From: an uncultured Bacteroidia bacterium
Lineage (GTDB): Bacteria; Bacteroidota; Bacteroidia; JAFLBG01
Direction: 5' to 3'
Length of the DNA: 64,000 nucleotides
Assembly (NCBI GenBank): GCA_964593555.1
Contig: CAZQIC010000007.1
Span: 6,226-70,225 of the forward strand
The translations under genes were made by a program, and so were the position numbers. Shown piece after piece: positions 12,099 to 64,000 of the stretch. Position 1 is the first letter of the stretch. Every line of letters starts with the position of its first letter. The notes beneath the pieces were generated by a model that was given only the letters and a program-made list of their open reading frames with translations, ran no database searches and was not told the origin of the DNA.

Positions 12099-12119
12099 TA
12101 TCGGGGAATATTATACCTT

Positions 12120-12179
12120 CAAAAAAAGCATAAGCCCCATGAATTTTATAATAAAACTTGCTTTACAATTCTATTTCTA
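12120..12179 (-). promoter_or_regulatory. Copy E of the conserved promoter module (TAGAAATAGAATTGTA ... TTTTTTTG) upstream of the 1610-aa adhesin gene
   Basis: The minus-strand 16-mer matches the 57-61 kb consensus at 12/16 positions. TTA lies at offset 28-30 and TTTG at offset 56-59. The ATG is at offset 81, the same geometry as copies A-D. Confidence 0.45.
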
Positions 12180-12258
12180 AATCTATATACAATACGATTT
12201 TATGCCGAATTTGGCTCAAAAAGATAATCTATTTTTTTGTCTTTCTAAATCTACGCCC

Positions 12259-14517: not shown

Positions 14518-14741
14518 AAATTTGTTTCCTACAAACAAAAGGTATCGTTCGAATGATTACAAACTTCATTGCAATAGTTATTAACTATCTGACAATTTTA
14601 AATATAATAATTTACCAATGAAATTTGTTACAATTTATTAAACGTCTGATATGACAGTAATATTTTATATTCGGCATAAACTTCTCCTAAAACAATCTCT
14701 TGTTTTATTCAGCTATTCGCAAAAAGAGATGCAAGGAATAA

Positions 14742-26785: not shown

Positions 26786-26917
26786 GTGACTTTTTATTTT
26801 CTATTTATAAACTTTATTAGTGCAATTTATAGCTTGTGAGTCGTGACGCCAAGACAAAAAATCTCCTTTATTAATAGTCTGATTCTGTTTTGATAAAAAT
26901 TAATTCGAAAATAATTT

Positions 26918-31789: not shown

Positions 31790-31912
31790 ACCACCTAACT
31801 TATTCAATACCCTAACATGGTTCAAGTAACTTTTACAACTTTATTAATTATCTGTCTGAAGAATAATTATAGTAATTGCCATTTTTGAAATAAAAAGCTT
31901 ATTTTTGATTAA

Positions 31913-36014: not shown

Positions 36015-36477
36015 AGGCTTAATTTTTATTTCTATTCTGTTACTTGCGGTATTGGTACAATCGTGTGACAGTAACCGCATTTACGAACACAACGTACAGA
36101 TCACTGACCAGCTTTGGGACAGTACAGAAAAAATTGTTTGTGAGGTAGATGTTACTGATACTGTTTCGCCAGTAGCCTTTTATATAAATGTCCGCCACGC
36201 TGATGGTTATCCATATAGCAACTTATATATGTTCATCCGCACCGATTTCCCAAATGGGAAAAAAGCAATAGACACATTGGAATGTCCTCTTGCTGATGAA
36301 ACAGGGAAATGGCTGGGCAAAGGATTAGGAGATATTTATGACTGCCAGATCCTCTTTAAAAAAAGAACACGTTTCCCTATAAGCGGAAAATATAAATTCA
36401 CAATTGAACAAGCCATGCGTGTAGATAAACTGCCGCTAATAATGGATGTCGGACTTCGTATAGAGAAACAAGAGTAA
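35986..36477 (+). CDS. gldH: Gliding motility lipoprotein GldH
   Basis: The internal ATG of ORF 35908 gives MNPARHAIHKGLIFISILLLAVLVQSCD, a lipoprotein signal. The motif ADGYPYSNLYMFI matches my recollection of GldH. Size is about 163 aa, and holB-PSP1-gldH synteny is common in Bacteroidota as I recall. It overlaps the PSP1 3-prime end by 29 nt. Confidence 0.7.
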   Translation: MNPARHAIHKGLIFISILLLAVLVQSCDSNRIYEHNVQITDQLWDSTEKIVCEVDVTDTVSPVAFYINVRHADGYPYSNLYMFIRTDFPNGKKAIDTLECPLADETGKWLGKGLGDIYDCQILFKKRTRFPISGKYKFTIEQAMRVDKLPLIMDVGLRIEKQE

Positions 36478-36560
36478 TAGTTAATTGTTGATTGTTGATT
36501 GTTAAAAACAATTTATCCAACAATTGACAACAAAGAACCGACAACAAAGAACTAACAAAA

Positions 36561-38105
36561 ATGGAAAACAGAAAAGTCAGAGTACGATTTGCACCAAGCC
36601 CCACAGGACCTTTACACATTGGCGGCGTAAGGACAGCATTGTACAATTATTTATTTGCAAAAAAACATGGTGGAGATTTTATCCTGCGAATTGAAGATAC
36701 TGACCAGGGAAGATTTGTGCCTGGTGCTGAGGAATATATTGTTGAATCGCTAAAATGGTCTGGCATATCACCCAATGAAGGCGTAGGTTTTGGAGATGGT
36801 TCTTATGCGCCCTACAGGCAAAGTGACAGGAAACCTATGTACAGGCAATATGCGGAACAACTTATAAATAGCGGTAACGCATATTATGCATTTGATACTT
36901 CGGAAGAATTGGATGCTATGCGTAAACGCATTGAAGCTGCAGGAGGAACTTCTTCTTACAACGCGATCACAAGACAATCCATGAAAAATTCAATTAGCCT
37001 TTCCGAAGATGAGGTGAAAAAATTATTAGATGCTGGCACACCATATGTGGTGAGAATGAAAATTCCACGCAATGAAGAAATTCGAGTGAACGATATTATA
37101 AGGGGATGGGTTGTTGTAAACAGTTCACAGATGGATGATAAAGTATTATTTAAATCTGATGGTATGCCTACTTATCATTTGGCAAATATCGTTGATGATT
37201 ATACCATGAAAATTACTCATGTAATACGTGGAGAAGAATGGTTGCCTTCTGCCCCACTGCATGTTTTGTTGTACAGGTATTTAGGATGGGAAGATGTAAT
37301 GCCTCAATTCGCTCACTTACCTTTATTGCTTAAGCCCGATGGCAATGGAAAACTGAGCAAGCGCGATGGCGACAGATTGGGTTTCCCTGTATTTCCGTTG
37401 GAGTGGAAAGATCCTTCTTCAGGAGAAATTTCTTCAGGATATAGAGAGAAAGGATATTATGCGGATGGATTTATCAATATGCTCTCGTTATTGGGATGGC
37501 ACAGCAGCGGCAACCAGGAATTATTTACGCTCGATGAATTAGCTAACGAATTTTCATTGGAGCGTGTGAGTAAATCCGGTGCAAAATTTGATCCCGAAAA
37601 AGCGAAATGGTTCAACCAACAATACTTGCGCAAACGCAGCGATGAGGAATTAGCAAAAGCCTGGATGCCTGAATTAGAATCAAAGGGAATTAAAACTGAT
37701 CTCGCTTTTGCGGCAAAAGTTATTTCATTGATAAAAGAAAAAGCCTTTTTTGCTCATGAGTTCTGGAGTCTTGGTAGTTTCTTTTTTCAACAGCCTGAAG
37801 TATATGATAAAGATGTTATCAAAAAAAGATGGAGTGAAAACAGCGCAAACTTTTTTACAGAACTAAAAAATGCATTCAGCACTTTAAATTCATTCACAGC
37901 TATTGAAACCGAAAACACATTTAAAGCCACCGCAGAAAAATTAGGAATTGGCGCAGGACAAGTAATGCAATTATTCCGTGTATGTGTAAGCGGCCTGGGT
38001 GGCGGCCCCGTATTGTTTGATATGGTGGCGCTATTAGGGAAAGAAGAAGTAATGAATAGATTGGATAAAGCAGTAAAAATATTAGGAACTAAAGTTGCAC
38101 AATAA
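36561..38105 (+). CDS. gltX: Glutamate--tRNA ligase
   Basis: Contains RFAPSPTGPLHIGGVRTALYNY (HIGH motif) and KLSKR (KMSKS-type motif). 514 aa. Confidence 0.95.
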   Translation: MENRKVRVRFAPSPTGPLHIGGVRTALYNYLFAKKHGGDFILRIEDTDQGRFVPGAEEYIVESLKWSGISPNEGVGFGDGSYAPYRQSDRKPMYRQYAEQLINSGNAYYAFDTSEELDAMRKRIEAAGGTSSYNAITRQSMKNSISLSEDEVKKLLDAGTPYVVRMKIPRNEEIRVNDIIRGWVVVNSSQMDDKVLFKSDGMPTYHLANIVDDYTMKITHVIRGEEWLPSAPLHVLLYRYLGWEDVMPQFAHLPLLLKPDGNGKLSKRDGDRLGFPVFPLEWKDPSSGEISSGYREKGYYADGFINMLSLLGWHSSGNQELFTLDELANEFSLERVSKSGAKFDPEKAKWFNQQYLRKRSDEELAKAWMPELESKGIKTDLAFAAKVISLIKEKAFFAHEFWSLGSFFFQQPEVYDKDVIKKRWSENSANFFTELKNAFSTLNSFTAIETENTFKATAEKLGIGAGQVMQLFRVCVSGLGGGPVLFDMVALLGKEEVMNRLDKAVKILGTKVAQ

Positions 38106-38107
38106 CA

Positions 38108-38458
38108 ATGGGTATCGTTAGAGTTGAGGGAATCCAGCTGCGAGCCTACCATGGCTGCATGGAAGAAGAAGCCACTGTAGGCAGTAATTATATTGTGGAT
38201 GTTGTTGTTGACGCAGATTTTACGGAAGCGGCAAAAACAGATGACCTTTCTAAAACGGTAGACTACGTAGACATTTACAATATTGTAAAAAAAGAAATGG
38301 ACATCCGTTCCAAGTTAATTGAACATGTGGCCCAGCGAATTGCCGATTCCATTAAAAAAAATATTTCGCGGGTATTGTCTGTTTCAGTAACAGTAAAAAA
38401 ATTGAATCCGCCTATTGGCGGATTCGTAGAAAAAACTTCAGTGACTATTCAGTCTTGA
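38108..38458 (+). CDS. folB: Dihydroneopterin aldolase
   Basis: 116-aa ORF starting 2 nt after gltX. It begins IQLRAYHGCMEEEATVGSNYIVDV and contains DDLSKTVDY, both typical of FolB. Confidence 0.85.
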   Translation: MGIVRVEGIQLRAYHGCMEEEATVGSNYIVDVVVDADFTEAAKTDDLSKTVDYVDIYNIVKKEMDIRSKLIEHVAQRIADSIKKNISRVLSVSVTVKKLNPPIGGFVEKTSVTIQS

Positions 38459-45247: not shown

Positions 45248-46225
45248 ATGGACTGGCTATTTGATAATCCGCTTGCTAATATGTATGGCCCATACTTTCT
45301 TTTATTGTATGGACTCGTCATTCTTTTATCAATAATTTTTATTCACTTTTTTGCAGAAAAATTAATAAGTATAAAAGACATATCTTCTTCCAAGATTCCC
45401 GCCAATCCAGATCCTTATGAAGTTGCGTACCTGAGAGGTGGCGCAAAAGAAGTGGTCAAGTTGATAATATATAACCTCCTGAGTAAGAATTTCTTAAAAT
45501 CATACTCCAAACCTGATAGATCAAAAGTTATTGTTCAAAAGGTTAATAAACATCCTTCGGTATTGAGTTTAAACCCAATAGATAGAGAAGTATTTAAACT
45601 TTTTACAATGCCATCAATGGAATTGAAGCAGTTTATGTTTTCCGATAAAGTAATAAACACTGTAGAAGACGAATGCGATAAATTTAAAAAGAGCTGGGAA
45701 ACCTTTGGATACTTAAGCATTACTGAACATGTAAAAAAATTTGACCGACTCAAAGCAAATACAATTGGTGTTGTTTTGTTTTTTGGTGCATATAAACTGC
45801 TTGCTGCATTCAGTCATGGACACTCCAATGTCATTTTCATGATCATACTTGGGATCTTAGGCATTTCAATTATAAGCGGATTTAGGTTAGATTCCGTAAC
45901 TACTAATTCAGGGAAAAAATATTTAGAGGATCTCGAAAAAGCCTTTAAACCAAAAACAGAAAAAGAGATTGATCACCTTCGCTACGAACAAAAATTTATG
46001 CTGATTGGTGTTTTAGGCTTTTCTCATTTTGCCCATACTCCATTCGGTTTTTTGGAACAATATGCAGGTAAGGTCAGACCAAAAAATTCAGTTATATCCG
46101 GTTGGTGGAATAATTGGTCGCCGGGGACAGGCGGCTCGTGTGGATCCAGCTGTAGTTCCGGTTCAAGCTGCGGATCGGGATGCGGTAGTGGATGCGGAGG
46201 CGGATGTGGTGGATGCGGAGGCTAA
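45248..46225 (+). CDS. TIGR04222-like polytopic membrane protein with Gly/Ser/Cys-rich C-terminal tail
   Basis: The N-terminus (DNPLANMYGPYFLLLYGLVILLSIIFIHFF) matches my recollection of the TIGR04222 domain. Further hydrophobic segments follow. The last 31 aa are GGSCGSSCSSGSSCGSGCGSGCGGGCGGCGG (7 Cys). Confidence 0.7.
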   Translation: MDWLFDNPLANMYGPYFLLLYGLVILLSIIFIHFFAEKLISIKDISSSKIPANPDPYEVAYLRGGAKEVVKLIIYNLLSKNFLKSYSKPDRSKVIVQKVNKHPSVLSLNPIDREVFKLFTMPSMELKQFMFSDKVINTVEDECDKFKKSWETFGYLSITEHVKKFDRLKANTIGVVLFFGAYKLLAAFSHGHSNVIFMIILGILGISIISGFRLDSVTTNSGKKYLEDLEKAFKPKTEKEIDHLRYEQKFMLIGVLGFSHFAHTPFGFLEQYAGKVRPKNSVISGWWNNWSPGTGGSCGSSCSSGSSCGSGCGSGCGGGCGGCGG

Positions 46226-46226
46226 T

Positions 46227-47060
46227 ATGAAAAAAAATGACATTCCCTCTCTTGGAGTCGGACTTGGCTTTCGACCGGAATTCATGAGCAGCATCTTCAT
46301 GAACAGAGAAAAAATTGATTTTCTTGAGATCATCGCAGATCATTACATAGACTGTTCTCCCGAAAAACTAAAAGAACTTGATCTGTTGGCAGAAAATTTT
46401 ATTCTCATCCCTCACGCCATTCATTTATCATTAGGAAGCGTAGATCTGGATTTGAATTACCTGCATAAATTAAATACAGTTATCCAACGTATTAATCCAC
46501 CTTATTGGAGTGAGCACATTTCATTCAGCCAGGTGCATGGAATTGATATTGGGCACCTCTCCCCTCTTCCTTACTCAAGAGAGGCAATTGATGCTTTTTG
46601 CAAGAACATTGAGCGAGTAAAAAAAAGTATTTCACAGCCACTTATACTCGAAAATATTTCTTACTCCATTAAATTACCCGGACAGGAAATGCCCGAGGCG
46701 AAATTCATAAATGAAATATTATTGGAGACTGGTTGCGGCCTCTTGCTTGATGTAACCAATCTGTATACAAATTCCGTTAATCATAATTATAATGCTCTTG
46801 GCTTTTTGAACGAGGTAATGGCAGAGAGAATCGTTCAATTGCATTTTGTTGGAGTCGATATAAAAAACGAAGTAATCATTGACAGTCATTCACAAAAAAC
46901 CTCTCCGGAAATATGGTCTTTGATGGAGGAGGTATTTAAGCGAAGTAAAGTAAAAGGCGCAGTGTTGGAAAGAGACTTGAATTTTCCAGCCTTTTCGGAA
47001 ATTACAGAAGAGCTGGACATTGCAAGAAAACTTGGAAAAAAACATAAGCAATGGAATTAA
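46227..47060 (+). CDS. DUF692 family enzyme (MNIO, MbnB-like TIM barrel)
   Basis: The ATG lies 1 nt after the preceding stop (track ORF 46029 is an out-of-context 5-prime extension). The 277-aa protein contains GVGLGFRPEF...DFLEIIADHY...IPHAIHLSLGS...WSEHISF...LENISY, the pattern I associate with DUF692. Confidence 0.8.
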   Translation: MKKNDIPSLGVGLGFRPEFMSSIFMNREKIDFLEIIADHYIDCSPEKLKELDLLAENFILIPHAIHLSLGSVDLDLNYLHKLNTVIQRINPPYWSEHISFSQVHGIDIGHLSPLPYSREAIDAFCKNIERVKKSISQPLILENISYSIKLPGQEMPEAKFINEILLETGCGLLLDVTNLYTNSVNHNYNALGFLNEVMAERIVQLHFVGVDIKNEVIIDSHSQKTSPEIWSLMEEVFKRSKVKGAVLERDLNFPAFSEITEELDIARKLGKKHKQWN

Positions 47061-47647
47061 GGCAGTACCAGGAAATATTAGCAAGATTGTACACTGATAA
47101 AAATTTTAGGGAAAGTTTTTTTCGAGATCGTACTACTACGTATCAACAGCTCCATATTTCCGAAAAAAACACTCAATTGCTAAATGAACTTTCCAAATTA
47201 CAGGTTGAGCAATTTGCACATTCACTTATATCTAAACGATTGGAAGCGGCAAAATCAATACTTGTGCTCACGAGTCGACAAATGGGGAATTATTTTGCCA
47301 AGGCCTTTTTCGAATATGCGTCCTGCAATAAACTTGAAGAGTCTAATAACAAATATTTGACTGATGCATTATCATTCACGAAATTTTTGTTAGGCAAATC
47401 AAAATTTGAAAGTAATGAACCATTCCAAAGAGAATTGATCCGGCACGAACAACAAAGAATAAATTCAGCGTTTGAAAAAAAGAAAATTACTATTCACAAA
47501 TTTAATTATAAAATTGAAGAGCTCATTCTATTCTTAGAAGGGAAGGCCGGTAACCCCAGGAAAAAAATTATTTATTCATTTGGCCTCCGAAAAAGGAACA
47601 GTCAAAATTTCAACTATTTTTCGATAGCTCTGCCGACTCTCTTTTAA
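47051..47647 (+). CDS. MNIO partner protein candidate (MbnC/DUF2063-like)
   Basis: 198-aa ORF whose ATG overlaps the DUF692 stop by 10 nt. It is helical and begins MELRQYQEILARLYTDKNFRESFFRD. The call rests mainly on position and coupling. Confidence 0.45.
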   Translation: MELRQYQEILARLYTDKNFRESFFRDRTTTYQQLHISEKNTQLLNELSKLQVEQFAHSLISKRLEAAKSILVLTSRQMGNYFAKAFFEYASCNKLEESNNKYLTDALSFTKFLLGKSKFESNEPFQRELIRHEQQRINSAFEKKKITIHKFNYKIEELILFLEGKAGNPRKKIIYSFGLRKRNSQNFNYFSIALPTLF

Positions 47648-47686: not shown

Positions 47687-48829
47687 TTATCTGGCAATGG
47701 TTACACTTCCCTTTATAAGCGGGAGGTCGGTATTGGCAGGTGCAGATAATTCATAAACGTACACTCCCATTGGTAATTCCGTTCCGCTTTCATCAACTCC
47801 ATTCCAGGTATAGTTGCCGCCTGATATTGTTTCTGCGAAAACTATGCGACCCGTTTTTCCATCGGTAATTTTTAATGTCACCGATTCGTTTGCAAACTTT
47901 TGTAATGGAACCTCCCAATAATTTTGGCGGGAGGGAACAATGATATAATCGCATGTTTCTTTTTCGATCTGCGCGACAACTGTTTTGCTCTTACAACCAT
48001 TCTGATCTTTTATTATCAGGGTATAATTTCCAATTCCCAGCTTATCAAATTTCGAATCTGTATTAAATGTTTTACCACCATCGATAGAAAATTCATACGA
48101 AGATTCTGTGTCTAAAGATGCTTTATCAAAAACTACTGCACCATTCTTTTGCCCAATACAGGTACTGATAGCTGAATAGCTGATATCAATTATTACGCCC
48201 TCACACTTATTAATTTCTTTTGACTGAATAGTTGTATTGTTATCCACTTTGTCCTCAACCTGTTTATCGGGAGAATATGCAGACTGTGGTAAGTATTCAG
48301 TCAATTTAATATTCCCCGTAGTATCCCAAGCGCCTTCAATAATCATATCTCCATCCTCAGGATATATTATCGTCTTACCCTCTCTCTTCTTCGGGTTAAA
48401 AACAAAAGTACTCTTATCATTATTATTTATAGAAGATCCTGTTTCAGACTTGCCATCATTATTAATAGATACGCTATCCGTATTTGGCTGTGAGATTTTA
48501 TTTATTACCGATTTGTTTTCTTCCTTATCCTGGAAAACCAATGTAGCAACAATAGAAAGTCCTACAACAGCAGCCGCAACACCATAATATAAATTACGGT
48601 TATTGGATTTTGGTGCAGAAGTATTTTCCGCATGAATCTTTTGCAATTTCTTTTTGATATCGATCGCTGCGTTATCAGAAATAATATCACTAACAGCCCG
48701 ATGAGCCTCCACCTCCTGATAAAAAGCAGGATCGTTCTGTAACTTCACCTCTACCTCTGCTTTTGTTGCAGCAGATAAGGTGTTGTTCAGATACCCTTCA
48801 ATCAGATCGTATGTAGACTCTATATTCAT
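47687..48829 (-). CDS. Anti-sigma factor with single TM helix, SprB-like repeat and FlgD-Ig/T9SS-CTD-like C-terminal domain
   Basis: The N-terminal 60 aa or so (LIEGYLNNTLSAATKAEVEVKLQNDPAFYQEVEAH) look like an anti-sigma domain. A TM helix follows (LYYGVAAAVVGLSIVATLVF). The ectodomain has CIGQKNGAVVF...GIGNYTLIIKDQNGC and ends in WNGVDESGTELPMGVYVYEL. Its start overlaps the sigma gene stop (ATGA). Confidence 0.7.
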   Translation of the reverse strand: MNIESTYDLIEGYLNNTLSAATKAEVEVKLQNDPAFYQEVEAHRAVSDIISDNAAIDIKKKLQKIHAENTSAPKSNNRNLYYGVAAAVVGLSIVATLVFQDKEENKSVINKISQPNTDSVSINNDGKSETGSSINNNDKSTFVFNPKKREGKTIIYPEDGDMIIEGAWDTTGNIKLTEYLPQSAYSPDKQVEDKVDNNTTIQSKEINKCEGVIIDISYSAISTCIGQKNGAVVFDKASLDTESSYEFSIDGGKTFNTDSKFDKLGIGNYTLIIKDQNGCKSKTVVAQIEKETCDYIIVPSRQNYWEVPLQKFANESVTLKITDGKTGRIVFAETISGGNYTWNGVDESGTELPMGVYVYELSAPANTDLPLIKGSVTIAR

Positions 48830-49401
48830 TCTTGTAATGACTTTTTTAAATGTGCATTTTCATTCATTAACTTGATCAACCGCTGTTTGCACTTGTAATT
48901 TTTTGTTTTCGCTGTATCTGAATTATTAAAACCCATCTTTATACTTATATCCTCCATCGACATTTTGTAAAAAACACTATACGTCAATAACTCTTTGCAC
49001 CTGTCGCCTAACTGAGATAATATTTCATTGATCTTCGTTTCTCTGTCGCTGCCAATATCCCTGGTTTGAATCTCCATTTCCTCCGCATGTACGTTGGCAT
49101 GCATCTCAACATTCCTTTCAAACTTGTTTTTCTGTTTTACTCTGTTCACCCAAAGATTTCTACTTATGGTGTAAATAAATCCTGCAACACTATTGCCTTC
49201 CTTGAATTTATTTTCTGTTACATATTTATAAAACGCAATTACCGCATCCTGGAAAATATCCTGTGCCTCATCAGTATCTCCATTATTCTGTAACACCCAT
49301 GCCCTTACTTTAGGCTGTACACTTTTATACAAGAATTTAAGAACGTTATCCGACTCTCCTTTTTTGATCGACTCTATAATTTCAGCATCCGTATAATTCA
49401 T
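48826..49401 (-). CDS. ECF-type RNA polymerase sigma-70 factor
   Basis: 191 aa. It has a region-2-like segment (DEAQDIFQDAVIAFYKYV) and a region-4 HTH (MSMEDISIKMGFNNSDTAKTKNYKCKQRL). Confidence 0.85.
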   Translation of the reverse strand: MNYTDAEIIESIKKGESDNVLKFLYKSVQPKVRAWVLQNNGDTDEAQDIFQDAVIAFYKYVTENKFKEGNSVAGFIYTISRNLWVNRVKQKNKFERNVEMHANVHAEEMEIQTRDIGSDRETKINEILSQLGDRCKELLTYSVFYKMSMEDISIKMGFNNSDTAKTKNYKCKQRLIKLMNENAHLKKSLQE

Positions 49402-57089: not shown

Positions 57090-57165
57090 CTTTAATTTCC
57101 ATCAACACAAACGCTCCCCAATACTTGGGCTGGGGGTATTTTAATTTTAGTTGTTTCTGTGTTTT
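57090..57165 (-). pseudogene. Fragment duplicating the 3-prime end of the CHAT-domain gene at 62217
   Basis: ttaatttccatcaacacaaacgctccccaatacttgggctgggggtattttaattt is near-identical to 62217-62275 (ctaatttcccatcaacacaaacgctccccaataattgggctgaggatattttaattt). It would encode LKYPQPKYWGAFVLM, compared with LKYPQPNYWGAFVLMGN. A 1-nt deletion precedes the stop. Confidence 0.7.
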
Positions 57166-57190
57166 CATCAAGTTTCTCAATCATTTCTTT

Positions 57191-57250
57191 TAGAAATACA
57201 ATTTATGGGTTAAAAAAATTACTCCTGCCCTATTGTTCGGTGTAATTTTG
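57191..57250 (+). promoter_or_regulatory. Promoter module copy A (TAGAAATACAATTTAT-N12-TTACT-N19-TAATTTTG)
   Basis: The ATG of the 91-aa peptide gene is at offset 80. The box at offset 52-59 equals the Bacteroidota -7 consensus TAnnTTTG. Confidence 0.6.
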
Positions 57251-57270
57251 CTACATAAATCAAACAAAAA

Positions 57271-57546
57271 ATGGAAGCGAAAAAAAAGATAAAGCTACAA
57301 GAACTGAAAACACAAAGTTTTATAACTAGTCTTGACAAATCAAAAAGTGAAACTATCAATGGTGCAGGAGGAGGTGCAGTAAACACTCAAGATAATTGCT
57401 ACCATACTGACTGGACTTGTTGGAGTGACATAAATGGTAATGGCCAAATTGATGGATATGAGCCATTTATATCCAAAATGGTTAGTGATTTTGGTCTTTG
57501 TTTACCTCTTGAAATAATTTACAATTCAATGGTAGGATATAATTAA
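57271..57546 (+). CDS. Leader-peptide-like small protein (91 aa, 3 Cys)
   Basis: The N-terminus (MEAKKKIKLQELKTQSFITSLDKSKSETINGAGGG) shares the KL..L.(V/T)(K/Q)SFIT motif and a Gly-rich junction with ORF 26477..26785. It is preceded by promoter module A and is convergent with helical paralog 3. Confidence 0.6.
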   Translation: MEAKKKIKLQELKTQSFITSLDKSKSETINGAGGGAVNTQDNCYHTDWTCWSDINGNGQIDGYEPFISKMVSDFGLCLPLEIIYNSMVGYN

Positions 57547-57728
57547 TATGAGCAACCTAATAGCCGCTATTGTCAATTATAAGAACACCCCTCCAAGATA
57601 GCTGCATCAGTTGCCGAAATTACCTCTATTATTGAAAGTCGCTTAAGCATGAATTGCTCAGAAGTAACAAAGTTGGTTATATATTGTATTGAGGTGCGAC
57701 AATATATCATTACACAAATGCTAATAAT

Positions 57729-57754
57729 AATGGGGGAGAAAAAAATCCCCCATT
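57729..57754. terminator. Hairpin between convergent genes (bidirectional terminator candidate)
   Basis: aatggggga - gaaaaaaa - tcccccatt: a 9-bp stem flanked by A/T runs on both sides. Confidence 0.55.
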
Positions 57755-57771
57755 AAATTTAAATAGTAATC

Positions 57772-59286
57772 CTATTTAAATGGCATTTTACTCTTCAACT
57801 TCCCTTCCACCCATGCACTAAAATCAAATAAATAAAACGCTTGTTTCTCATAAGGATTGTTTTGCAGCTGCGAAAGCTCTCTTTTCAAACTATGCAAATT
57901 CCTTATATAGATTTCTTTACCTTTTACGCCGCCTAATTGTTTCTTAAAAAATTCGAGCATCAGACTTTCCACCTGAAAAACAATATTTCGTTTGATTAAA
58001 TATTTTTTCGCGGAGGCATAAGCCGACTCAAGTGCCTGTTCATCTTCAGCATCAAAGTATATTACCATATTAATCAACCTAAACATAGAATGCAAATCCG
58101 TCCTCACCACATTATCCAGATTTGAAATAGAAAAATTCAAGACTTTTTTCGCCAGCCCATAGTCTTTTGATGAAACAGCTGCCTTTAACAATTGAAAGCA
58201 GATCGTAATTTTATCTTCAGGGGTCATCTGCATTTGCACACCATTTTTTATTTTTTCAAAGTGTGTTTTTGCAATATCTATTGCATCCTTATATTTTCCA
58301 ATAAGATTATAACGTTCAAGCTCGAGTTTAACCACTAACATATCAATTGTATAAACAGAATCGGGTTGATATTTGCTTGTCTGTTTTGAAAAGTCCTTTA
58401 AATATTTAACTGTTAGTGGCATTTCGGAAAAAAATTTATTCTTTGCCTGACACATTCCTAAATTATATAAACTCATTATATATGAACCACTCCTATCAGC
58501 TATTAGTTTAGGCCTAAGCTGAAATTCATTAACCAAAACCTTACCATAATAATAGGCTTTATCATATTCATATATCATATAATGATATGCGAACCGATTT
58601 AAGTAATAATGAGTCAATGCACCAAAGGAAATTGCCTTTTTTTCATTCGCTAATAAATCAGAGGTTAATAATTCTTTCATCTCATGTGCATCATTTTTTT
58701 TTCGGATGTATCCTGTTTTCTGACGTTTTAAAAAAAATATCATTGATAATCTCAAAAAATCATTTGCGTTTTGAAGTTGCTTTACATTTAAATCAGATTT
58801 GTCAAAAAAAACTTCTATTTCCTTGGGGGTCACATTTGTAAATGATCTGATTCTTAACAATTCCAAATCCCATCTATTTAGTTCTGCTATACAACTAAAC
58901 CTTTCATAATTTTCAGCCAGTTGGCGTGTCTTTTTCAAAATATTCTCACACAACTTAAACAATCCCTTTTTGAATAAAATTTCGATGTGATTAAGATAAT
59001 TTCTCAATTCATTATCAACGGATGATTCGCGATGATATGCAGCCAAGGCATTTAAGATAAGATTTTGAAGATAAAATTTTATCTCCGCAAAACGCCCATC
59101 CGACACTTCTGCCTTCAATTTATACTTTAGTTCGCCTTCATCATAATTTTCTTGTTTTTCTATTAAATCAAACAATCGGATTGCAAATGTTTCAGTAGTG
59201 TGAATCGAAAAAAGCTTAACGTATCGCTTTTCAGATTTGGTTAATGAGTGTATAAGTTGATGCAAATGTGTATTTGGAGTCTTCAT
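57772..59286 (-). CDS. Helical (TPR-like) protein of unknown function, paralog 3 of 3
   Basis: 504 aa with ATG start. It has the N-terminal LHQLIHSLTKSEKRYVKLF motif and the C-terminal NPYEKQAFYLFDFSAWVEGKL motif. Its start codon lies 2 nt from promoter module B on the opposite strand. Confidence 0.7.
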   Translation of the reverse strand: MKTPNTHLHQLIHSLTKSEKRYVKLFSIHTTETFAIRLFDLIEKQENYDEGELKYKLKAEVSDGRFAEIKFYLQNLILNALAAYHRESSVDNELRNYLNHIEILFKKGLFKLCENILKKTRQLAENYERFSCIAELNRWDLELLRIRSFTNVTPKEIEVFFDKSDLNVKQLQNANDFLRLSMIFFLKRQKTGYIRKKNDAHEMKELLTSDLLANEKKAISFGALTHYYLNRFAYHYMIYEYDKAYYYGKVLVNEFQLRPKLIADRSGSYIMSLYNLGMCQAKNKFFSEMPLTVKYLKDFSKQTSKYQPDSVYTIDMLVVKLELERYNLIGKYKDAIDIAKTHFEKIKNGVQMQMTPEDKITICFQLLKAAVSSKDYGLAKKVLNFSISNLDNVVRTDLHSMFRLINMVIYFDAEDEQALESAYASAKKYLIKRNIVFQVESLMLEFFKKQLGGVKGKEIYIRNLHSLKRELSQLQNNPYEKQAFYLFDFSAWVEGKLKSKMPFK

Positions 59287-59287
59287 T

Positions 59288-59347
59288 TAGAAATACAATT
59301 TATGATTATTTAAAGTTACTATTTTATTTTATATCGCTATAATTTTA
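59288..59347 (+). promoter_or_regulatory. Promoter module copy B (TAGAAATACAATTTAT-N12-TTACT-N19-TAATTTTA)
   Basis: The 16-mer is identical to copies A and C. The ATG of a 56-aa ORF is at offset 78. Confidence 0.55.
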
Positions 59348-59365
59348 CCAAAATCACATGCGCAA

Positions 59366-59536
59366 ATGAAAAACAAATTTGAAATTTTTAAAAAAATCGG
59401 ATTTCACTATTGTAAAAAAGATATGGAGAAGATTACTGGACAAATGTTCATGCCATTTATGCCGATGCCAAGAATCACACCCTCCATCGGCCATCTCAAT
59501 ATGACCAATTCAGAACCCCAGTTAGTCCCTGGATAG
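59366..59536 (+). CDS. Unannotated 56-aa ORF (below the ORF-track cutoff)
   Basis: It encodes MKNKFEIFKKIGFHYCKKDMEKITGQMFMPFMPMPRITPSIGHLNMTNSEPQLVPG. Its ATG sits at the same distance from module B as the verified starts sit from modules A, C, D and E. Confidence 0.4.
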   Translation: MKNKFEIFKKIGFHYCKKDMEKITGQMFMPFMPMPRITPSIGHLNMTNSEPQLVPG

Positions 59537-59576
59537 CCAGTGAAAATGATTAAAACAAACCTTTTCAACTCTCAAT

Positions 59577-59636
59577 TAGAAATCCAATTTTTACATCTTT
59601 TAACTTACTTTACTCTTCGAGTTTCCAATAGTTTTA
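59577..59636 (+). promoter_or_regulatory. Promoter module copy D (TAGAAATCCAATTTTT-N12-TTACT-N19-TAGTTTTA)
   Basis: 13/16 match in the 16-mer, with TTACT at offset 28-32 and TAGTTTTA at offset 52-59. The ATG of the 522-aa gene is at offset 85. Confidence 0.5.
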
Positions 59637-59661
59637 GCCATATTAATTAAATCCATACGTT

Positions 59662-61230
59662 ATGTTAAAAAACATACTTTACTCTTTCATTCTTTTACCA
59701 TTCATTACTAATGCTCAATCTACCTCTTTAAAAAAGTGTTTTGGAGGGACAAATGCCGATGTTGCCTTTCACTCAGTAAAAACATCGAATGGCCATATTG
59801 CATTAGCCGGTTATTCATCGTCATCAAATGGAGATACTCCCATAAATTATGGAGGTACTGATTTTACGTTTTTAATTATCGACACCTCAGGGACTGTTAT
59901 TTCCACAAAAAATTATGGAAGCAGTGGAAGTGATGCAGCATACTCACTTACAGAATGCAGGGACAATGGGTTTGCTATTATTGGTGTTTCCGATAAGGCA
60001 GACTCTAACGTTACACTTAACAAAGGGCAATTTGATATTTGGATTGTTAAAACTGACGCTCAAGGAAATTTATTATGGGAAAAATCCTTCGGAGGCTCTT
60101 CCTCCGAACACGGTTATGGTATTTTACAAACACGCGATAACGGTTTTCTTCTTGCAGGAAAAACTAATTCTTCTGATGGGGATGTAACGTCAAACCATGG
60201 CGCATCAGATGGCTGGTTAATAAAAACGGATTCCATTGGAAATCTTTTATGGGAAAAAACCTATGGTGGTACGTTAAGTGATGGTTTTTATTCAATAACG
60301 CTATGCAGCAACAATGACATATTGGTATGTGGGCATTCAGCATCCTCTAATGGTAATTTAACGTTTAATAACGGAGCAGAAGATTTATGGGTAATGAGAC
60401 TTGATAGTGTCGGAACTGTATTATGGTCTAAATCCTTTGGAGGAACACAATATGAAGGAGGGGAATCAATTGTTGAGACATCAAGTGGTGATATCGTTGT
60501 TATTGGAGCAACCGACTCGAACAATGGAGATGTTACCGGCAGTCATGGATTAACAGACTCGTGGTTGATAAAACTAAATGCGACCGGTAATTTGAAATGG
60601 AAAAAATGTTTTGGCGGAACATTGTTTGACTATTCCTCCTCTATAATCGAAACTGAGGATAAAAAGTATTTATTTTGCGGGCAAGCAAGATCAAACAACG
60701 GAGACCTAAATGGTAATTCTATTTTTGGCCTTGAGGACTATTGGGTTGTTAAAACTGATACCAACGGGGCAATTATTTGGCAAAAAAATTACGGAGGGAC
60801 TGGACCAGACTATGCAAACAGTATTATATCCCTTGGCGATGATAAGTATGTTGTTGTTGGTAACACCACATCAAATAACAATGATGTTTCCGGAAATCAC
60901 AGTGCTGACAATGATGCATGGGTTTTGATCGTAAAAGACCAAGCTAATACCACTTCTATTAATTCATACTCGGCGAAAACTAAAGTTTACTATACTGCAT
61001 ATCCTAATCCGGCTAACACAACTTTTTATCTTGATCTGCAAAGTGCATTCAGCTCAGAGCTATCTCTTATTCTCTATAACAACCTAGGTGAAAGAGTTAT
61101 CGTTAAAGACAAAGTGATCGCAGGTGATCGTTTGGTAATTGATGTTTCACATATTCCTGCGGGGATATACTACTTAGAAATAAATGACACTAACAATACC
61201 GGTATAAGTAGAATTATAGTTCAAAAATAG
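59662..61230 (+). CDS. Secreted tandem-repeat (propeller-like) protein with T9SS type-A CTD
   Basis: It has a signal peptide. The unit GGS..D.(A/G)YS...T.DNGF...G.T.S.DGDVT.NHG..D.W(L/I)IKTD..GNLLWEK occurs about seven times, each about 55 aa. The C-terminus is YPNPANTTFYLDL...LYNNLGERV...AGIYYLEIN. Confidence 0.75.
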   Translation: MLKNILYSFILLPFITNAQSTSLKKCFGGTNADVAFHSVKTSNGHIALAGYSSSSNGDTPINYGGTDFTFLIIDTSGTVISTKNYGSSGSDAAYSLTECRDNGFAIIGVSDKADSNVTLNKGQFDIWIVKTDAQGNLLWEKSFGGSSSEHGYGILQTRDNGFLLAGKTNSSDGDVTSNHGASDGWLIKTDSIGNLLWEKTYGGTLSDGFYSITLCSNNDILVCGHSASSNGNLTFNNGAEDLWVMRLDSVGTVLWSKSFGGTQYEGGESIVETSSGDIVVIGATDSNNGDVTGSHGLTDSWLIKLNATGNLKWKKCFGGTLFDYSSSIIETEDKKYLFCGQARSNNGDLNGNSIFGLEDYWVVKTDTNGAIIWQKNYGGTGPDYANSIISLGDDKYVVVGNTTSNNNDVSGNHSADNDAWVLIVKDQANTTSINSYSAKTKVYYTAYPNPANTTFYLDLQSAFSSELSLILYNNLGERVIVKDKVIAGDRLVIDVSHIPAGIYYLEINDTNNTGISRIIVQK

Positions 61231-61380
61231 ATTTTCACACTCGTATTAAAAATTAATTTACTCGTTTAGAAAACAAATTTTTGGCCAAATAATATTGACG
61301 TCTCGCAGAAAGAGATTCCATTTTCAGTACCCAAAAAAAGTTTCATATATCTTTTCCAACATGCGTTTTGGATTTCATTT

Positions 61381-61440
61381 TAGAAATACAATTTATAGTT
61401 ATATAAAATTAGAATTAACTTTTTATGTGTGCCAATTTTA
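61381..61440 (+). promoter_or_regulatory. Promoter module copy C (TAGAAATACAATTTAT-N12-TTAGA-N19-CAATTTTA)
   Basis: The 16-mer is identical to copies A and B. The ATG of the 207-aa gene is at offset 79. Confidence 0.55.
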
Positions 61441-61459
61441 AACTCAAATACTAAAACCA

Positions 61460-62083
61460 ATGAGAACACTGCATACTATTTTACTTATGATTTCTTTCCG
61501 TTTATTAGTATTAGCCCAGACAGGGATAGTATTAGATTATCCTAACGGAGGAGAAACTTTACCTTCAGGCATTGCTGACACTATTAGATGGACTGATTTT
61601 CCGAGCCAGGCAAACACAACAGTTAACTTATTCTATTCAACGAATGGAGGCAGCACGTGGGCCACGATTAAAAACAAAGTCCCCAATACCGGTATGTATG
61701 CGTGGGCCATACCTAATACCGCATCAGCACAATGCAGAGTAAAAGTAACAACCAATTACGGAGCCTTTGCGACAGATATGAGCGACAATGATTTTACAAT
61801 TACCGGTGGTGCAACATCAATTGTACCACCCGATATAAACGGTAATTTTCATGTGCATTTCAATGCAAACTCCAAAGAAATTATAATAAAAAGCCTGTCC
61901 ATTCAGGAATCCCCATACACCCTTTATTTATACAACCTGCTTGGGGATTTTATTTTCTCAGTAGAAAACCAAGGCAATTCATCCTTTTACATACCTGATA
62001 TAACGTATGGTATCTACATAATAAAAATTGACCAGACTAGATCTTTTCCATACATACAAAAAATACAATTAACAGATAAATAA
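61460..62083 (+). CDS. Small secreted Ig-like protein with T9SS type-A-like CTD
   Basis: 207 aa with a signal peptide. It contains YPNGGETL...IRWTD...STNGGSTWATI and the C-terminus YLYNLLGDFIF...GIYIIKID. Confidence 0.6.
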   Translation: MRTLHTILLMISFRLLVLAQTGIVLDYPNGGETLPSGIADTIRWTDFPSQANTTVNLFYSTNGGSTWATIKNKVPNTGMYAWAIPNTASAQCRVKVTTNYGAFATDMSDNDFTITGGATSIVPPDINGNFHVHFNANSKEIIIKSLSIQESPYTLYLYNLLGDFIFSVENQGNSSFYIPDITYGIYIIKIDQTRSFPYIQKIQLTDK

Positions 62084-62216
62084 AACTAAAGCGTGCAGAA
62101 ATACAATCAACACAAATTTTTAATAAAAAATGAAGCCAAAGAAAAAAATCAGAAGAATTAACATCGGATAATTTTATTACAAGTACATATAAGTTATACT
62201 TAAAAGTTCTTTATAC

Positions 62217-64000
62217 CTAATTTCCCATCAACACAAACGCTCCCCAATAATTGGGCTGAGGATATTTTAATTTGAGCTGCTTTTGCGCTTTAAGAAAAGC
62301 ATCCTGTTTGTTTCCGGAGACAGCAAAGTTTTTATAAAAATTTGTCATCAGGTCAACAGTAGCATTATCACTCACGGTCCATAAACTCATAATAACAGAT
62401 TTAGCACCAGCAACCAGGAACGAACGCTGTAAGCCATAAACACCCTCTCCAACTTTCACATCTCCTAAACCTGTTTCACAAGCACTCAGTACAACAAGTT
62501 CGGTATTTTCCAATGACATGTTCATTGCTTCATAAGCAGTTAATACACCATTGTTGCTAGACTGGTGGTCGCTTTTTCCTGCAAATGCATCTTCTGCACC
62601 CGCCAATAAAATTCCTGAACGATGAAGTGGATTTTCTTTGGCTTTTGATGTTTCGATACCCAATACTTTTTCAGCATCGGGATTTCGTATTGCAGGTAAA
62701 AAGAAACCATGCGTTGCAATATGTAAAATTTCGGAGGAAGTTGATTTTACATTCTCCTCATTGGCATTTAATTCTAAATATGTTTTTGTTTTATATCCGG
62801 CTGCTTTTAAGATCTTCTCAATGTTCTCTACTTCTTTTTTTGTTCCCGGCAGTTCACTGATCTTTCCATTTGTTCCGTATTTAGGATAACCGTACAATGA
62901 GGCTGTCTTTTTTATGTTCGCCTTTTTATCGGCAGCAAGTTTCACTTTTAACACTTCTTTTGAATTTCCTACCAGCACGATAATTTTCGTGTCTATTAAA
63001 TATTTGCCGGATGGATCTTTAATCGTGTTAAGACTGATCTGATTGTACACACCATCAGGAGAAATATACAATGTTTTTTTTCCTTTTGTTAGTTGATCTA
63101 TTCCACTCCAGAACTGGAGATAAGTATCTTCTGCATCAACTAGTTTTTTTATTCCTGCCCTATATGATTTTATATATGTTGTTTCAAGGTCATTTCCATT
63201 TTTTAACAAAACAAATTTTGGTTCGTTGATCGTGGTTTTATCAATTACCAAGGCGGCGTAATAAACAGAATCAACAAAAACTCTTTTGAATTTTCTAAAC
63301 TGAACTATTTCAACTATTGCTTCGTCTGGTTTCAGTGATTGAACCAACTCCTTAAATGACACATGATGTTTAACCACGTCACTGCCAAATATTTCTGATT
63401 CGGAAGACAACTCCTTCTCCAATTTATTAGTCATCGTTTCCAACGAATCAAGATTTATTTTTTCTTCGACGAGTTCATCTTTAGAAAGCGTGTATAAACG
63501 AGCCAGATTTTCTTTTTGATCCAGCCATTGGCTGTATTTTTTTTGCAAGCCCTCATTACCGCTTGCCATAATTTGCTGCCTCACCTTATTTGATGAATTT
63601 AATAAAAGTGCCTTGGTTCTTATTTGCGTATCATACATCAATGCGATCATTTCCGGGTACGCAGACCCTGCCTCCATGCAAAAAGAATTAAACCTGTTTA
63701 GTCTTGGCGACATCTTGGCCCAGAATTTACTTTTTTCACTCTCACTCATTGGAGCAAAATAAGCATCAATGTATCCTAATGTTGCTGCAATAACTTTTTT
63801 ATAACTCTCCTTCGCTTCCTGCATATTATTTTTCTGCCATTCAAAAATCGCATGATCCTCGAGACTGTTTATATACTCCGGATGATTTTCTCCTAATATT
63901 TTTTTTCTCACCTCCAATGCCTTCGCAAGCAAGGGCGCAGCTTCATCTAAACGGTTGTTTATCCTGCAATAATTCCCAAGGTCACTAATTGTAGAAGCAT
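62217..64000 (-). CDS. TPR-repeat CHAT-domain (caspase-like) protein, 5-prime end outside the window
   Basis: The reading frame stays open upstream of the track start (TTG at 63932) to the window edge (...ISDLGNYCRINNRLDEAAPLLAKALEVRKKILGENHPEY, TPR-like). The C-terminal half has LHIATHGFF and LVVLSACETG, which fit the CHAT His/Cys dyad, and ends in YWGAFVLMGN. Confidence 0.8.
   Translation of the reverse strand, partial: ASTISDLGNYCRINNRLDEAAPLLAKALEVRKKILGENHPEYINSLEDHAIFEWQKNNMQEAKESYKKVIAATLGYIDAYFAPMSESEKSKFWAKMSPRLNRFNSFCMEAGSAYPEMIALMYDTQIRTKALLLNSSNKVRQQIMASGNEGLQKKYSQWLDQKENLARLYTLSKDELVEEKINLDSLETMTNKLEKELSSESEIFGSDVVKHHVSFKELVQSLKPDEAIVEIVQFRKFKRVFVDSVYYAALVIDKTTINEPKFVLLKNGNDLETTYIKSYRAGIKKLVDAEDTYLQFWSGIDQLTKGKKTLYISPDGVYNQISLNTIKDPSGKYLIDTKIIVLVGNSKEVLKVKLAADKKANIKKTASLYGYPKYGTNGKISELPGTKKEVENIEKILKAAGYKTKTYLELNANEENVKSTSSEILHIATHGFFLPAIRNPDAEKVLGIETSKAKENPLHRSGILLAGAEDAFAGKSDHQSSNNGVLTAYEAMNMSLENTELVVLSACETGLGDVKVGEGVYGLQRSFLVAGAKSVIMSLWTVSDNATVDLMTNFYKNFAVSGNKQDAFLKAQKQLKLKYPQPNYWGAFVLMGN

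Follow-up and report, generated by a model that had tools for sequence, protein, structure and literature searches.

A ~5-kb island in the 64-kb stretch of DNA analysed here (the window) contains four modules in which an 18-bp block, a short second block and a -7 box recur at fixed spacing upstream of start codons. We judge it probable, at roughly 80%, that these modules are co-regulated promoters sharing a cis site, and we nominate as the reader of that site, at about even odds, a 504-aa RusR-family protein encoded within the island. These views build on a sequence architecture that is non-randomly conserved, and on the membership of the 504-aa protein in the RusR family.

Module architecture and promoter assignment

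The 16-mer TAGAAATACAATTTAT occurs in the window as three exact plus-strand copies at 57191, 59288 and 61381, and a fourth copy with two mismatches, TAGAAATCCAATTTTT, lies at 59577. The two bases 5' of the 16-mer are also kept, which extends the block to the 18-mer TTTAGAAATACAATTTAT (Table 1). All four copies are intergenic and oriented toward the downstream gene, with TTACT (copies A to C) or TTAGA (copy D) at offsets 28-32, and TAATTTTG, TAATTTTA, TAGTTTTA and CAATTTTA, respectively, at offsets 52-59. Start codons follow at offsets 80, 78, 85 and 79 (ATGs at 57271, 59366, 59662 and 61460); the distance from the 18-mer to the -7 box is identical in 4/4 copies, and that to the ATG is 78 to 85. 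Each of these elements was found where the original prediction had placed it. The prediction had also listed two weaker relatives of the 16-mer near 61275 and 62097, which exist but begin at 61267 and 62096; the first keeps the module geometry and the second has lost it. A scan of the window with a 17-mer, allowing up to two mismatches, returned nothing beyond the four module copies, and matches with 3-4 mismatches were mostly intragenic and background-like. The partial copies at 62057-62111 are followed by a 13-codon ORF, MKPKKKIRRINIG.

Table 1. Coordinates of the promoter modules and genes of the island (window numbering).
Feature	Position	Strand	Description
Module A	57189..57250	+	18-mer 57189-57206; TTACT 57219-57223; -7 box TAATTTTG 57243-57250; predicted TSS ~57255; serves 91-aa peptide gene
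91-aa peptide	57271..57546	+	pinensin-type lanthipeptide leader, residues 5-31; GAGGG motif
504-aa all-helical protein	57772..59286	-	candidate regulator; distant BT2802/RusR family member
Module B	59286..59347	+	18-mer 59286-59303; TTACT 59316-59320; -7 box TAATTTTA 59340-59347; predicted TSS ~59352; serves 56-aa ORF
-7 box TAACTTTA of regulator gene	59311..59318	-	32 nt upstream of regulator ATG
56-aa ORF	59366..59536	+	no family match; absent from Logan record gene calls
Module C (variant copy)	59575..59636	+	18-mer ATTAGAAATCCAATTTTT 59575-59592; TTACT 59605-59609; -7 box TAGTTTTA 59629-59636; predicted TSS ~59641
522-aa secreted beta-propeller-like protein	59662..61230	+	T9SS type A C-terminal sorting domain
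Degenerate fifth module	61265..61326	+	TTTAGAAAACAAATTTTT; TTGAC at +28; CATTTTCA at +52; probably a decayed copy
Module D	61379..61440	+	18-mer 61379-61396; TTAGA 61409-61413; weak -7 box CAATTTTA 61433-61440; predicted TSS ~61445
207-aa secreted protein	61460..62083	+	signal-peptide-like N-terminus; borderline T9SS type A sorting domain
Two partial, decayed 16-mer copies	62057..62111	+	62057-62072 and 62096-62111; no -7 box at +52

Pairwise identity among the copies is 83-100% in the 18-mer, 60-100% at offsets 28-32 and 75-88% at offsets 52-59, as compared to 26-42% in the spacer at offsets 33-51, 11-50% at offsets 60-77 and 24-45% in the left flank. Conservation takes the form of three islands (the 18-mer, the +28 TTACT/TTAGA block and the +52 TAnnTTT(G/A)-like box) between spacers that have fallen to background. 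As the pattern YARTTTTR has a frequency of 0.0012 per intergenic position, four such boxes at one shared offset greatly exceed what chance would give. A search of public genomes and metagenomes, in two collections that do not include the source genome, with a pattern of 22 specified bases gave seven chance matches, all of which lack a box at offset 52. No phylogenetic footprint is available, since no orthologue of the 504-aa protein above 32% identity was found and the other contigs of the same organism are all 100% identical. The dyad symmetry of the 18-mer is weak (5/7 pairs); we estimate its chance at ~2% for one fixed centre, and it is not significant when alternative centres are allowed.

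Mapped transcription start sites (TSSs) in Bacteroidota place the sigma-A -7 box at -12 to -5 and give a median length of 24 nt for the 5'UTR (PMC9723704). The offset 52-59 box fits the corresponding consensus, TAnnTTTG: TAATTTTG in copy A is the only full match, TAATTTTA and TAGTTTTA in copies B and C differ solely by G8 to A, and CAATTTTA in copy D is a poor fit. The gap from box to ATG is 26-33 nt in the modules and 13-33 nt in housekeeping genes of the window. On consensus, ATG distance and published TSS placement, the proposed identity of this box as the -7 element holds up in silico. With the box set at -12 to -5, the predicted 5'UTRs are 14-21 nt and the 16-mer occupies about -64 to -49, which corrects the -45 to -60 first proposed for it. 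The TTACT block had been put forward as the -33 element, and TTAC/TTAG does sit in the right place (-36 to -33, with a 19-nt gap to the -7 box), but only 2-3 of its 4 bases match the TTTG element of B. fragilis, an element that is undetectable in some Bacteroidota (PMC7366714). The modules are like Bacteroidota sigma-A promoters in their -7 box, 19-nt spacing to a -33-like block and short 5'UTRs, and unlike them in having TTAC or TTAG for TTTG and an extra, invariant 18-mer upstream. The start sites, as well as activation at the modules, are predicted from sequence.

Genes of the island and the candidate regulator

The genes following the modules had been described as a leader-type peptide, a 56-aa ORF and two T9SS type-A proteins, and this description stands in part. 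The 91-aa peptide scores 36.7 bits against NF038180 (cutoff 24) over residues 5-31, and in this it is like a pinensin-family lanthipeptide precursor; unlike one, it has no LanB/LanC-type neighbour among the window ORFs of at least 100 aa scanned against Pfam, and no homologues of the peptide were found. The 56-aa ORF, with neither a family nor a gene call, may not be a gene. The 522-aa protein is a clear T9SS type-A protein, scoring above both cutoffs against TIGR04183 (45.5 bits, cutoff 23) and PF18962 (47.7 bits), whereas the 207-aa protein falls just short of TIGR04183 at 22.4 bits. 70-bp direct repeats of the 3' end of a CHAT gene border the island on both sides.

The 504-aa protein matches the BT2802/RusR model NF058569 from end to end (residues 5-500 on model positions 4-496 of 502, E 9e-47). 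Its score of 160 bits does not reach the NCBIfam cutoff of 550 bits, which marks the protein as a distant relative rather than as the RusR of the ribose system. Two paralogues in the window match the same model with E values of 5e-31 and 5e-40, and the family of the 504-aa protein comprises 6873 clusters at E<=1e-30. Its AF2 model (pLDDT 93) has an N-terminal bundle of 4-5 helices followed by a TPR-like solenoid that gives TPR fold matches. A helix-turn-helix (HTH) or other DNA-binding domain was not detected by Pfam; the N-terminal 88 residues gave no match in a PDB profile search, and Foldseek with the confident N-terminal model returned no HTH, all E values being above 5. A conserved basic face on helix 17-29 (K17, K20, R21 and K24) is only suggestive of DNA contact. 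The original prediction had made this protein a candidate (auto)regulator, a role that the full-length family match favours and the missing HTH does not.

In the ribose utilization locus of Bacteroides thetaiotaomicron, genetic evidence defines RusR as a positive regulator; it is credited with predicted DNA-binding motifs, and its deletion cuts rus induction to ~10% (bioRxiv 10.1101/574913). The two proteins are alike in family, in length (~500 aa) and in being all helical, and the RusR gene adjoins the genes for whose activation it is genetically required. They differ, beyond the distance in score, in their neighbours: those in the island are a peptide gene, T9SS-type secreted proteins and a CHAT protein, with no ribokinase, SusC/D or permease. 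Neither an operator nor in-vitro DNA binding of RusR was found in the searchable literature, so there is no reported site with which the 18-mer could be compared. In all eight RusR-family loci sampled, three from the window and five fetched, the regulator gene is divergent from its neighbour; T9SS sorting domains or SprB-type adhesin repeats mark five of these neighbours, and of the other three, two code for M1 peptidases, one of which has a weak T9SS tail, and the third is gltB.

Another motif of the window, CAGAYNNTTAATAA, is present in four exact copies, each upstream of a minus-strand gene, mostly of T9SS type, and one more copy with a single mismatch overlaps the ATG of the 504-aa protein's paralogue at 31913. 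We count this set, as a putative parallel case to the 18-mer modules, in favour of the regulator reading.

Alternative explanations for the shared modules

The 18-mer could be a true cis element with another reader: either the RNA polymerase alpha subunit, which would contact it like an UP element and make the promoters constitutively strong, or an unlinked transcription factor. Its A/T-rich composition and location at -49 to -66, within the UP-element zone, would suit the former, and the failure of Pfam, PDB and fold searches to detect a DNA-binding domain in the 504-aa protein would suit both. However, UP elements are degenerate, whereas 18/18 bases, G and C included, are identical in three copies whose spacers have randomised. 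Other promoters of the window have no such element, and the 18-mer clusters around a regulator-family gene and abuts its start codon. We consider a different reader unlikely.

The likeness of the modules could also be the relic of a segmental duplication that copied a single cassette of divergent regulator and target, with shared regulation since lost. In 3/4 copies a minus-strand ATG is found 1-6 nt past the 18-mer, an arrangement that the regulator gene shows at copy B, and a frame to the left of copy D reads KRYMKLF, which retains 6/7 residues of the family hallmark EKRYVKLF in the right position and orientation. The decayed copies at 61267, 62057 and 62096 and the direct repeats on both sides of the island also fit such a history. 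A DNA alignment of the putative regulator remnant is not significant, however, as 36/500 shuffles score equally well, and duplication accounts for the origin of the copies but not for their maintenance: flanks and spacers have diverged to 24-45% identity while the 18-mer has remained at 100% and the boxes at +28 and +52 have kept their spacing, a pattern that points to selection. Loss of shared regulation after duplication is distinctly unlikely.

Still more doubtful is an alternative (ECF-type) sigma promoter, in which GAAAT of the 16-mer would be the -35 element and TTAC the -10 element, with a start near offset 40. The two conserved blocks are 12 nt apart, and an ECF sigma gene (48826-49401) lies 8 kb from the island. 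This model leaves the conserved +52 TAnnTTT(G/A) box, a hallmark of sigma-A promoters, without a role; a CGT-type -10 motif is absent from the module, and nothing module-like precedes the ECF gene, although ECF sigmas usually autoregulate.

A dispersed repeat, miniature mobile element or structured RNA, which several intact and decayed copies inside 5 kb might suggest, was ruled against and is very improbable: terminal inverted repeats are absent and similarity ends at ~45 nt, the copies always face a downstream gene, none occurs inside genes (in agreement with the original prediction), in random context or in the remaining 59 kb of the window, Rfam gave no match, and module folding energies are no better than those of shuffles (z -1.3 to +1.2).

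Proposed regulation and related systems

Under the co-regulated promoter reading, each module would be a Bacteroidota primary-sigma promoter, with a TAnnTTT(G/A) -7 box and a weak -33-like TTAC, preceded at fixed distance by an 18-bp operator, TTTAGAAATACAATTTAT, at about -66 to -49. Together, these promoters would drive a small local regulon: the leader-type peptide, the 56-aa ORF and the two T9SS-type secreted proteins. The most likely reader of the operator would be the 504-aa RusR-family protein encoded within the island. Positioned ~56 bp upstream of the TSS, beside a poor -33 element, this protein would activate transcription by recruiting RNA polymerase.

At copy B, base 1 of the 18-mer falls within the start codon of the regulator gene, and the TTACT block doubles, on the other strand, as the TAACTTTA -7 box of that divergent gene. 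The block's assignment to the -33 region suits its position in the target promoter but had missed this second role. With the box at -12 to -5 as in PMC9723704, the regulator TSS is predicted at ~59306, and the 16-mer lies at about +3 to +18 of the regulator transcript. The operator would thus sit just downstream of the regulator's own start, and the regulator's -7 box would overlap the -33 region of the target promoter. Through this shared site and the overlapping boxes, a single binding event may activate the target and throttle the regulator gene; the layout is an autoregulatory geometry, from which autoregulation itself is predicted.

LysR-type divergent promoters have a high-affinity site near -65 and a second site near -35, and the divergent regulator gene is autorepressed. 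The island has a similar layout: the regulator gene and its putative target diverge, a second conserved block at -35/-33 comes after a strong upstream site, and that upstream site overlaps the promoter or leader of the regulator gene. The 504-aa protein, however, shows neither an HTH_1 nor a LysR substrate-binding domain by Pfam and is not a LysR-type regulator, and the island promoters are of the Bacteroidota -33/-7 type, so that the likeness is one of working only. The small helical N-domain followed by a TPR solenoid is reminiscent of the RRNPP regulators (Rap, NprR, PlcR, Rgg and PrgX) and of MalT domain III; fold matches include Rap proteins and MalT domain III with target-normalised TM scores of 0.39-0.54, which reflect generic TPR similarity (E ~1e-2). 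The regulator gene has a small peptide-type ORF on either side, each carrying its putative operator, which would suit an RRNPP-like system. In contrast to those regulators, the 504-aa protein has no XRE-type HTH and comes from a different phylum; its N-domain gave no fold match. RRNPP signal peptides are secreted and processed, and the 91-aa (leader plus GG motif) and 56-aa ORFs of the island would be candidates at most for such a role.

Local regulons whose promoters share an operator are ordinary. The RusR family, in turn, is large and barely studied, and the 18-mer would provide the first candidate operator for any of its members.

A common upstream site in four promoter modules

Four promoter modules (A to D) each carry a plus-strand 16-mer, which reads TAGAAATACAATTTAT in three exact copies and TAGAAATCCAATTTTT in module C; offsets are counted from its first base. 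Together with the two preceding bases, the sequence common to three copies is the 18-mer TTTAGAAATACAATTTAT, a putative operator. The original prediction described, in addition to the 16-mers, a TTACT or TTAGA element, a box at offsets 52-59 and a downstream start codon, all of which are borne out at their positions (see table). On both strands of the 64-kb window there are no other copies with two or fewer mismatches to the 17-mer, and matches with 3-4 mismatches are mostly intragenic and background-like.

Coordinates and sequence elements of the features discussed
Feature	Position (strand)	Offsets 28-32	Offsets 52-59	Offsets 30 to 23, minus strand	ATG offset	Predicted TSS
Module A, serving the 91-aa peptide	57191 (+)	TTACT	TAATTTTG	TAATTTTT	80	~57255 (+)
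Module B, serving the 56-aa ORF	59288 (+)	TTACT	TAATTTTA	TAACTTTA	78	~59352 (+)
Module C, serving the 522-aa T9SS protein	59577 (+)	TTACT	TAGTTTTA	TAAGTTAA	85	~59641 (+)
Module D, serving the 207-aa protein	61381 (+)	TTAGA	CAATTTTA	TAATTTTA	79	~61445 (+)
Decayed fifth module	61265-61326
Partial (decayed) 16-mers	62057; 62096
91-aa peptide	57271-57546
504-aa candidate regulator	57772-59286 (-)					~59306 (-)
56-aa ORF	59366-59536
T9SS type A cargo, clear	59662-61230
T9SS type A cargo, borderline	61460-62083
RusR-like paralogues	24873-26402; 31913-33454
CHAT-derived direct repeats	57096-57165; 62222-62291
DUF692 enzyme	46029-47647
ECF sigma gene and 380-aa protein	47687-49401 (-)
CAGAYNNTTAATAA, exact copies	14578-14591; 14635-14648; 26868-26881; 31841-31854 (all -)
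CAGAYNNTTAATAA, one mismatch	31906-31919 (-)
AATTGTAACAAA	24769-24782; 14624-14637

Pairwise identity among the modules is 83-100% over the 18-mer, 60-100% at offsets 28-32 and 75-88% at offsets 52-59. It is 26-42% in the spacer (offsets 33-51), 11-50% at offsets 60-77 and 24-45% in the 38 nt to the left of the module, the low values being at the background level for 31% G+C intergenic DNA. Since YARTTTTR occurs at 0.0012 per intergenic position, four such boxes at one offset are not due to chance. The 18-mer and the box are a constant number of bases apart, while the spacing to the ATG varies, which is the signature of a constrained promoter architecture. As an external control, genome_contigs and metagenome_contigs, neither of which contains the source genome, were scanned for TAGAAATMCAATTTWTNNNTNNNNNAANTTA, a version of the module's left part with 22 specified bases; two single matches in the former and five in the latter were all judged to be chance, and all seven lack the box at +52. 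The four modules, together with the decayed ones, are a real, non-random set with a common upstream operator.

In flavobacterial TSS maps the sigma-A box TAnnTTTG lies at -12 to -5, with a median 5'UTR of 24 nt (PMC9723704), and B. fragilis promoters carry an additional TTTG near -33, an element that is not visible in all Bacteroidota (PMC7366714). In the window, pgk, holB and other genes have TAnnTTT(G/A) boxes 13-33 nt ahead of their start codons, indicating that the organism uses this promoter type; the box at offsets 52-59 fits the sigma-A consensus, in agreement with its proposed role as the -7 element. An E. coli-type -35/-10 scan returned no more matches than shuffles, as expected for Bacteroidota. 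When the -12 to -5 rule is applied to the modules, the predicted 5'UTRs are 14-21 nt long. By the same rule TTAC/TTAG falls at -36 to -33, where a -33 element had been proposed, but it matches TTTG at only 2-3 of 4 bases. The 16-mer, proposed as an upstream site, would be upstream of the promoter at -64 to -49, slightly farther than estimated. A weak -33 element combined with a strong, conserved upstream site would have the look of an activator-dependent promoter.

The 18-mer may instead be a UP element or the site of an unlinked factor, although a generic UP element is made less likely by the perfect identity of its 18 bases and by the way the copies cluster about the regulator gene. Reading the module as an ECF-sigma promoter leaves the box at +52 unexplained, and no copy of the motif precedes the ECF gene located nearby. 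Upstream of that gene (Sigma70_r2) there is the hairpin terminator of the preceding gene and nothing module-like; the gene after it encodes a 380-aa protein whose tail is a weak CHU_C match. A dispersed repeat, equally frequent inside genes, or an RNA element is not supported, as within the window all four good copies are intergenic and oriented toward the downstream gene, with no Rfam family and no significant folding. Dyad symmetry of the 16-mer (5 of 7 pairs complementary) is not significant.

The genes served had been described as a leader-type peptide, a 56-aa ORF and two T9SS type A proteins. Residues 5-31 of the 91-aa peptide match the pinensin lanthipeptide leader model above its cutoff; no homologues of the peptide were found, and no lanthipeptide enzyme was found among the window ORFs of at least 100 aa scanned against Pfam. 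One of the two T9SS assignments is clear, but the second is borderline, and the 56-aa ORF has no family support and was not called by the assemblies' gene finders, being a candidate gene solely by virtue of module B and a start codon at the usual distance. Approximately 10 kb from the 91-aa peptide, the window also encodes a DUF692 (MbnB/TglH/ChrH-type) RiPP-modifying enzyme (PF05114, E 2e-81) with a 198-aa partner ORF; no 16-mer is located upstream of this enzyme.

A divergently encoded RusR-like protein

The 504-aa protein encoded divergently from module B contains no Pfam domain and aligns over its full length with the NCBIfam model NF058569 ("BT2802 family ribose utilization protein"; E 9e-47), with a score of 160 bits that lies under the 550-bit cutoff. 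BT2802 is RusR. Its authors presented RusR, for which DNA-binding motifs are predicted, as a candidate for a new type of regulator; deleting it abolishes growth on ribose and leaves rus induction at ~10% (bioRxiv 10.1101/574913), and later work still regards it as the regulator of the rus locus. No operator for RusR was found defined in the later literature searched, and the searchable literature yielded neither a DNA site nor a mode of binding for any RusR-like protein, a single family member having been studied, and only genetically. The family is very large in Bacteroidota: a profile search returned 6,873 clusters (50% identity) at E<=1e-30, the best 150 of which are all ~490-530 aa and matched along their whole length. 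The best homologue of the 504-aa protein is ~32% identical, the two paralogues in the window are 20-28% identical to it, and no orthologous locus is present in the protein collection searched. Five contig look-ups for the source organism (two SRA runs, two JGI samples) were 100% identical to the window, with no polymorphisms.

All eight family loci examined (three in the window, five fetched) are divergent from a neighboring gene, an arrangement typical of pathway-specific regulators. In the window the neighbor is a giant CHU_C/SprB adhesin-type protein at two loci and the module B unit at the third; at the fetched loci they are a T9SS beta-helix protein (L009), a DUF7948/SprB protein (L010), M1 peptidases, one with a weak T9SS tail (L011 and L012), and the glutamate synthase gltB (L013, Roseivirga). 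The 18-mer is absent from all five fetched loci. An 11-mer, TATTTCTAAAT, that is shared with the reverse complement of the 18-mer occurs in the L012 intergenic region (L012 6835-7003), but its geometry differs and it is thus taken as chance. L009 (1087-4683; Logan contig, SRR31740696) is syntenic with window positions 34833-38458 over PSP1-GldH-GltX-FolB, beyond which it has a T9SS gene and a divergent RusR-like pair of its own. Conserved chromosomal positions may thus be places where pairs of this type are gained and lost.

In the confident AlphaFold2 model of the 504-aa protein (pLDDT 93), residues 1-88 form a bundle of 4-5 helices and the remainder a TPR-like solenoid. No helix-turn-helix was found: full-length sequence and fold searches returned only generic TPR proteins, including MalT domain III and Rap (E ~1e-2), and the N-terminal 88 residues, modeled alone with a pLDDT of 91, have no fold match in the PDB (E >5) and no PDB sequence match by profile search. 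We therefore infer DNA binding by the 504-aa protein from the fact that it is homologous to RusR. Conservation within the family is highest in SLTKSEKRxFKL, which is helical in the model and has a basic face that would be compatible with nucleic-acid binding.

The original prediction overlooked a second promoter element in copy B, where offsets 30 to 23 read on the minus strand form a good -7 box that precedes the ATG of the divergent 504-aa gene by 32 nt, so that the 79-bp intergenic region B holds two back-to-back predicted promoters. Their -7 boxes are 21 bp apart, each within the -33 zone of the other promoter. The predicted 20-nt leader of the 504-aa gene is essentially the 16-mer, and the 18-mer is positioned upstream of the rightward predicted TSS and just downstream of the leftward one. 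Judged by geometry only, a protein bound to this 18-mer could switch on the rightward promoter and hold back the leftward one, which drives its own gene. The proposal that the 504-aa protein is a candidate (auto)regulator gains from its distant relationship to RusR and its autoregulatory layout, but no helix-turn-helix was found in it.

Origin of the island and parallel motifs

Several features point to repeated copying of one regulator/target cassette as the way in which the island grew. The decayed fifth module keeps the module geometry. The partial 16-mer at 62096, CAGAAATACAATCAAC, is followed 34 nt on by a 13-codon ORF, MKPKKKIRRINIG and a stop codon, the start of which is faintly like MEAKKKIKLQELK of the 91-aa peptide; the stretch 62096-62171 may represent a module A unit that has decayed. 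A minus-strand ATG lies 1-6 nt beyond the 18-mer in three of the four copies. To the left of module D (61231-61378, minus strand), an ATG opens MKSKTHVGKDI followed by a stop codon, and a shifted frame reads KRYMKLF, which agrees with the family hallmark EKRYVKLF at 6 of 7 residues in the right place. This region may be the decayed 5' remnant of a lost paralogue; its DNA alignment as a putative regulator remnant is not significant. On either side of the whole ~5-kb island (~57166-62221), in which the regulator gene and every module lie, there is a 70-bp direct repeat derived from the 3' end of a CHAT gene; the two are 86% identical and could be the scar of an insertion or duplication. The island contains no integrase. 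That the 18-mer has been perfectly retained although its flanks have decayed argues for a site still in use, and the likeness of the modules is more than chance and more than recent duplication.

A second motif, CAGAYNNTTAATAA, occurs in four exact copies, all upstream of minus-strand genes that mostly encode T9SS-type proteins, and a one-mismatch copy overlaps the start codon of the paralogue at 31913. With at most one mismatch there are 9 matches as compared to 1.96 expected, a number reached in 0 of 100 shuffles. Its distance to a -7-like box is variable, and a private motif for each paralogue is only loosely supported. The paralogue at 24873 has one AATTGTAACAAA copy in its divergent region, and the other copy is upstream of a T9SS gene (12259-14538), beside a CAGAYNNTTAATAA copy; this sharing could be chance. 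TAGATTTAGAAA is found twice at 12099-12258 (minus strand), upstream of a 1610-aa adhesin gene, where one copy reads TTAGAAATAGAATTGTA, with 4 mismatches to the 17-mer, and looks like a -7 box (TAGATTTA) followed by GAAAT, not a true module.

A probable local regulon and its significance

In the most likely model, the island is a local regulon controlled by the RusR-family protein that is encoded divergently within it, and its layout is autoregulatory. A far bolder reading, which we consider very improbable, is that the 504-aa protein is a Bacteroidota counterpart of the Firmicutes RRNPP peptide receptors. The ligand of its TPR solenoid would be one of the flanking peptides after processing (the 91-aa product, with its double-glycine-type leader, or the 56-aa product), and both peptide genes would carry the receptor's operator, producing a positive-feedback cell-cell signaling loop that also switches on the two T9SS-secreted proteins. 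If true, the family (~7,000-10,000 clusters) would be a large unrecognized class of TPR transcription factors gated by ligands, in which RusR represents the sugar-sensing branch. If none of these readings holds, the modules are merely a set of related promoters.

A local regulon with a shared operator is an ordinary type of feature. The value of this one lies in a candidate operator that can be tested, in a regulator family that is large and has hardly been studied: the site is of high information, four-fold repeated and in fixed register with recognizable promoter elements, and part of it doubles as the regulator's own predicted leader. A second paralogue in the window may have a comparable private motif, and the locus ties the RusR-like family to the control of T9SS-secreted proteins, not sugar utilization.
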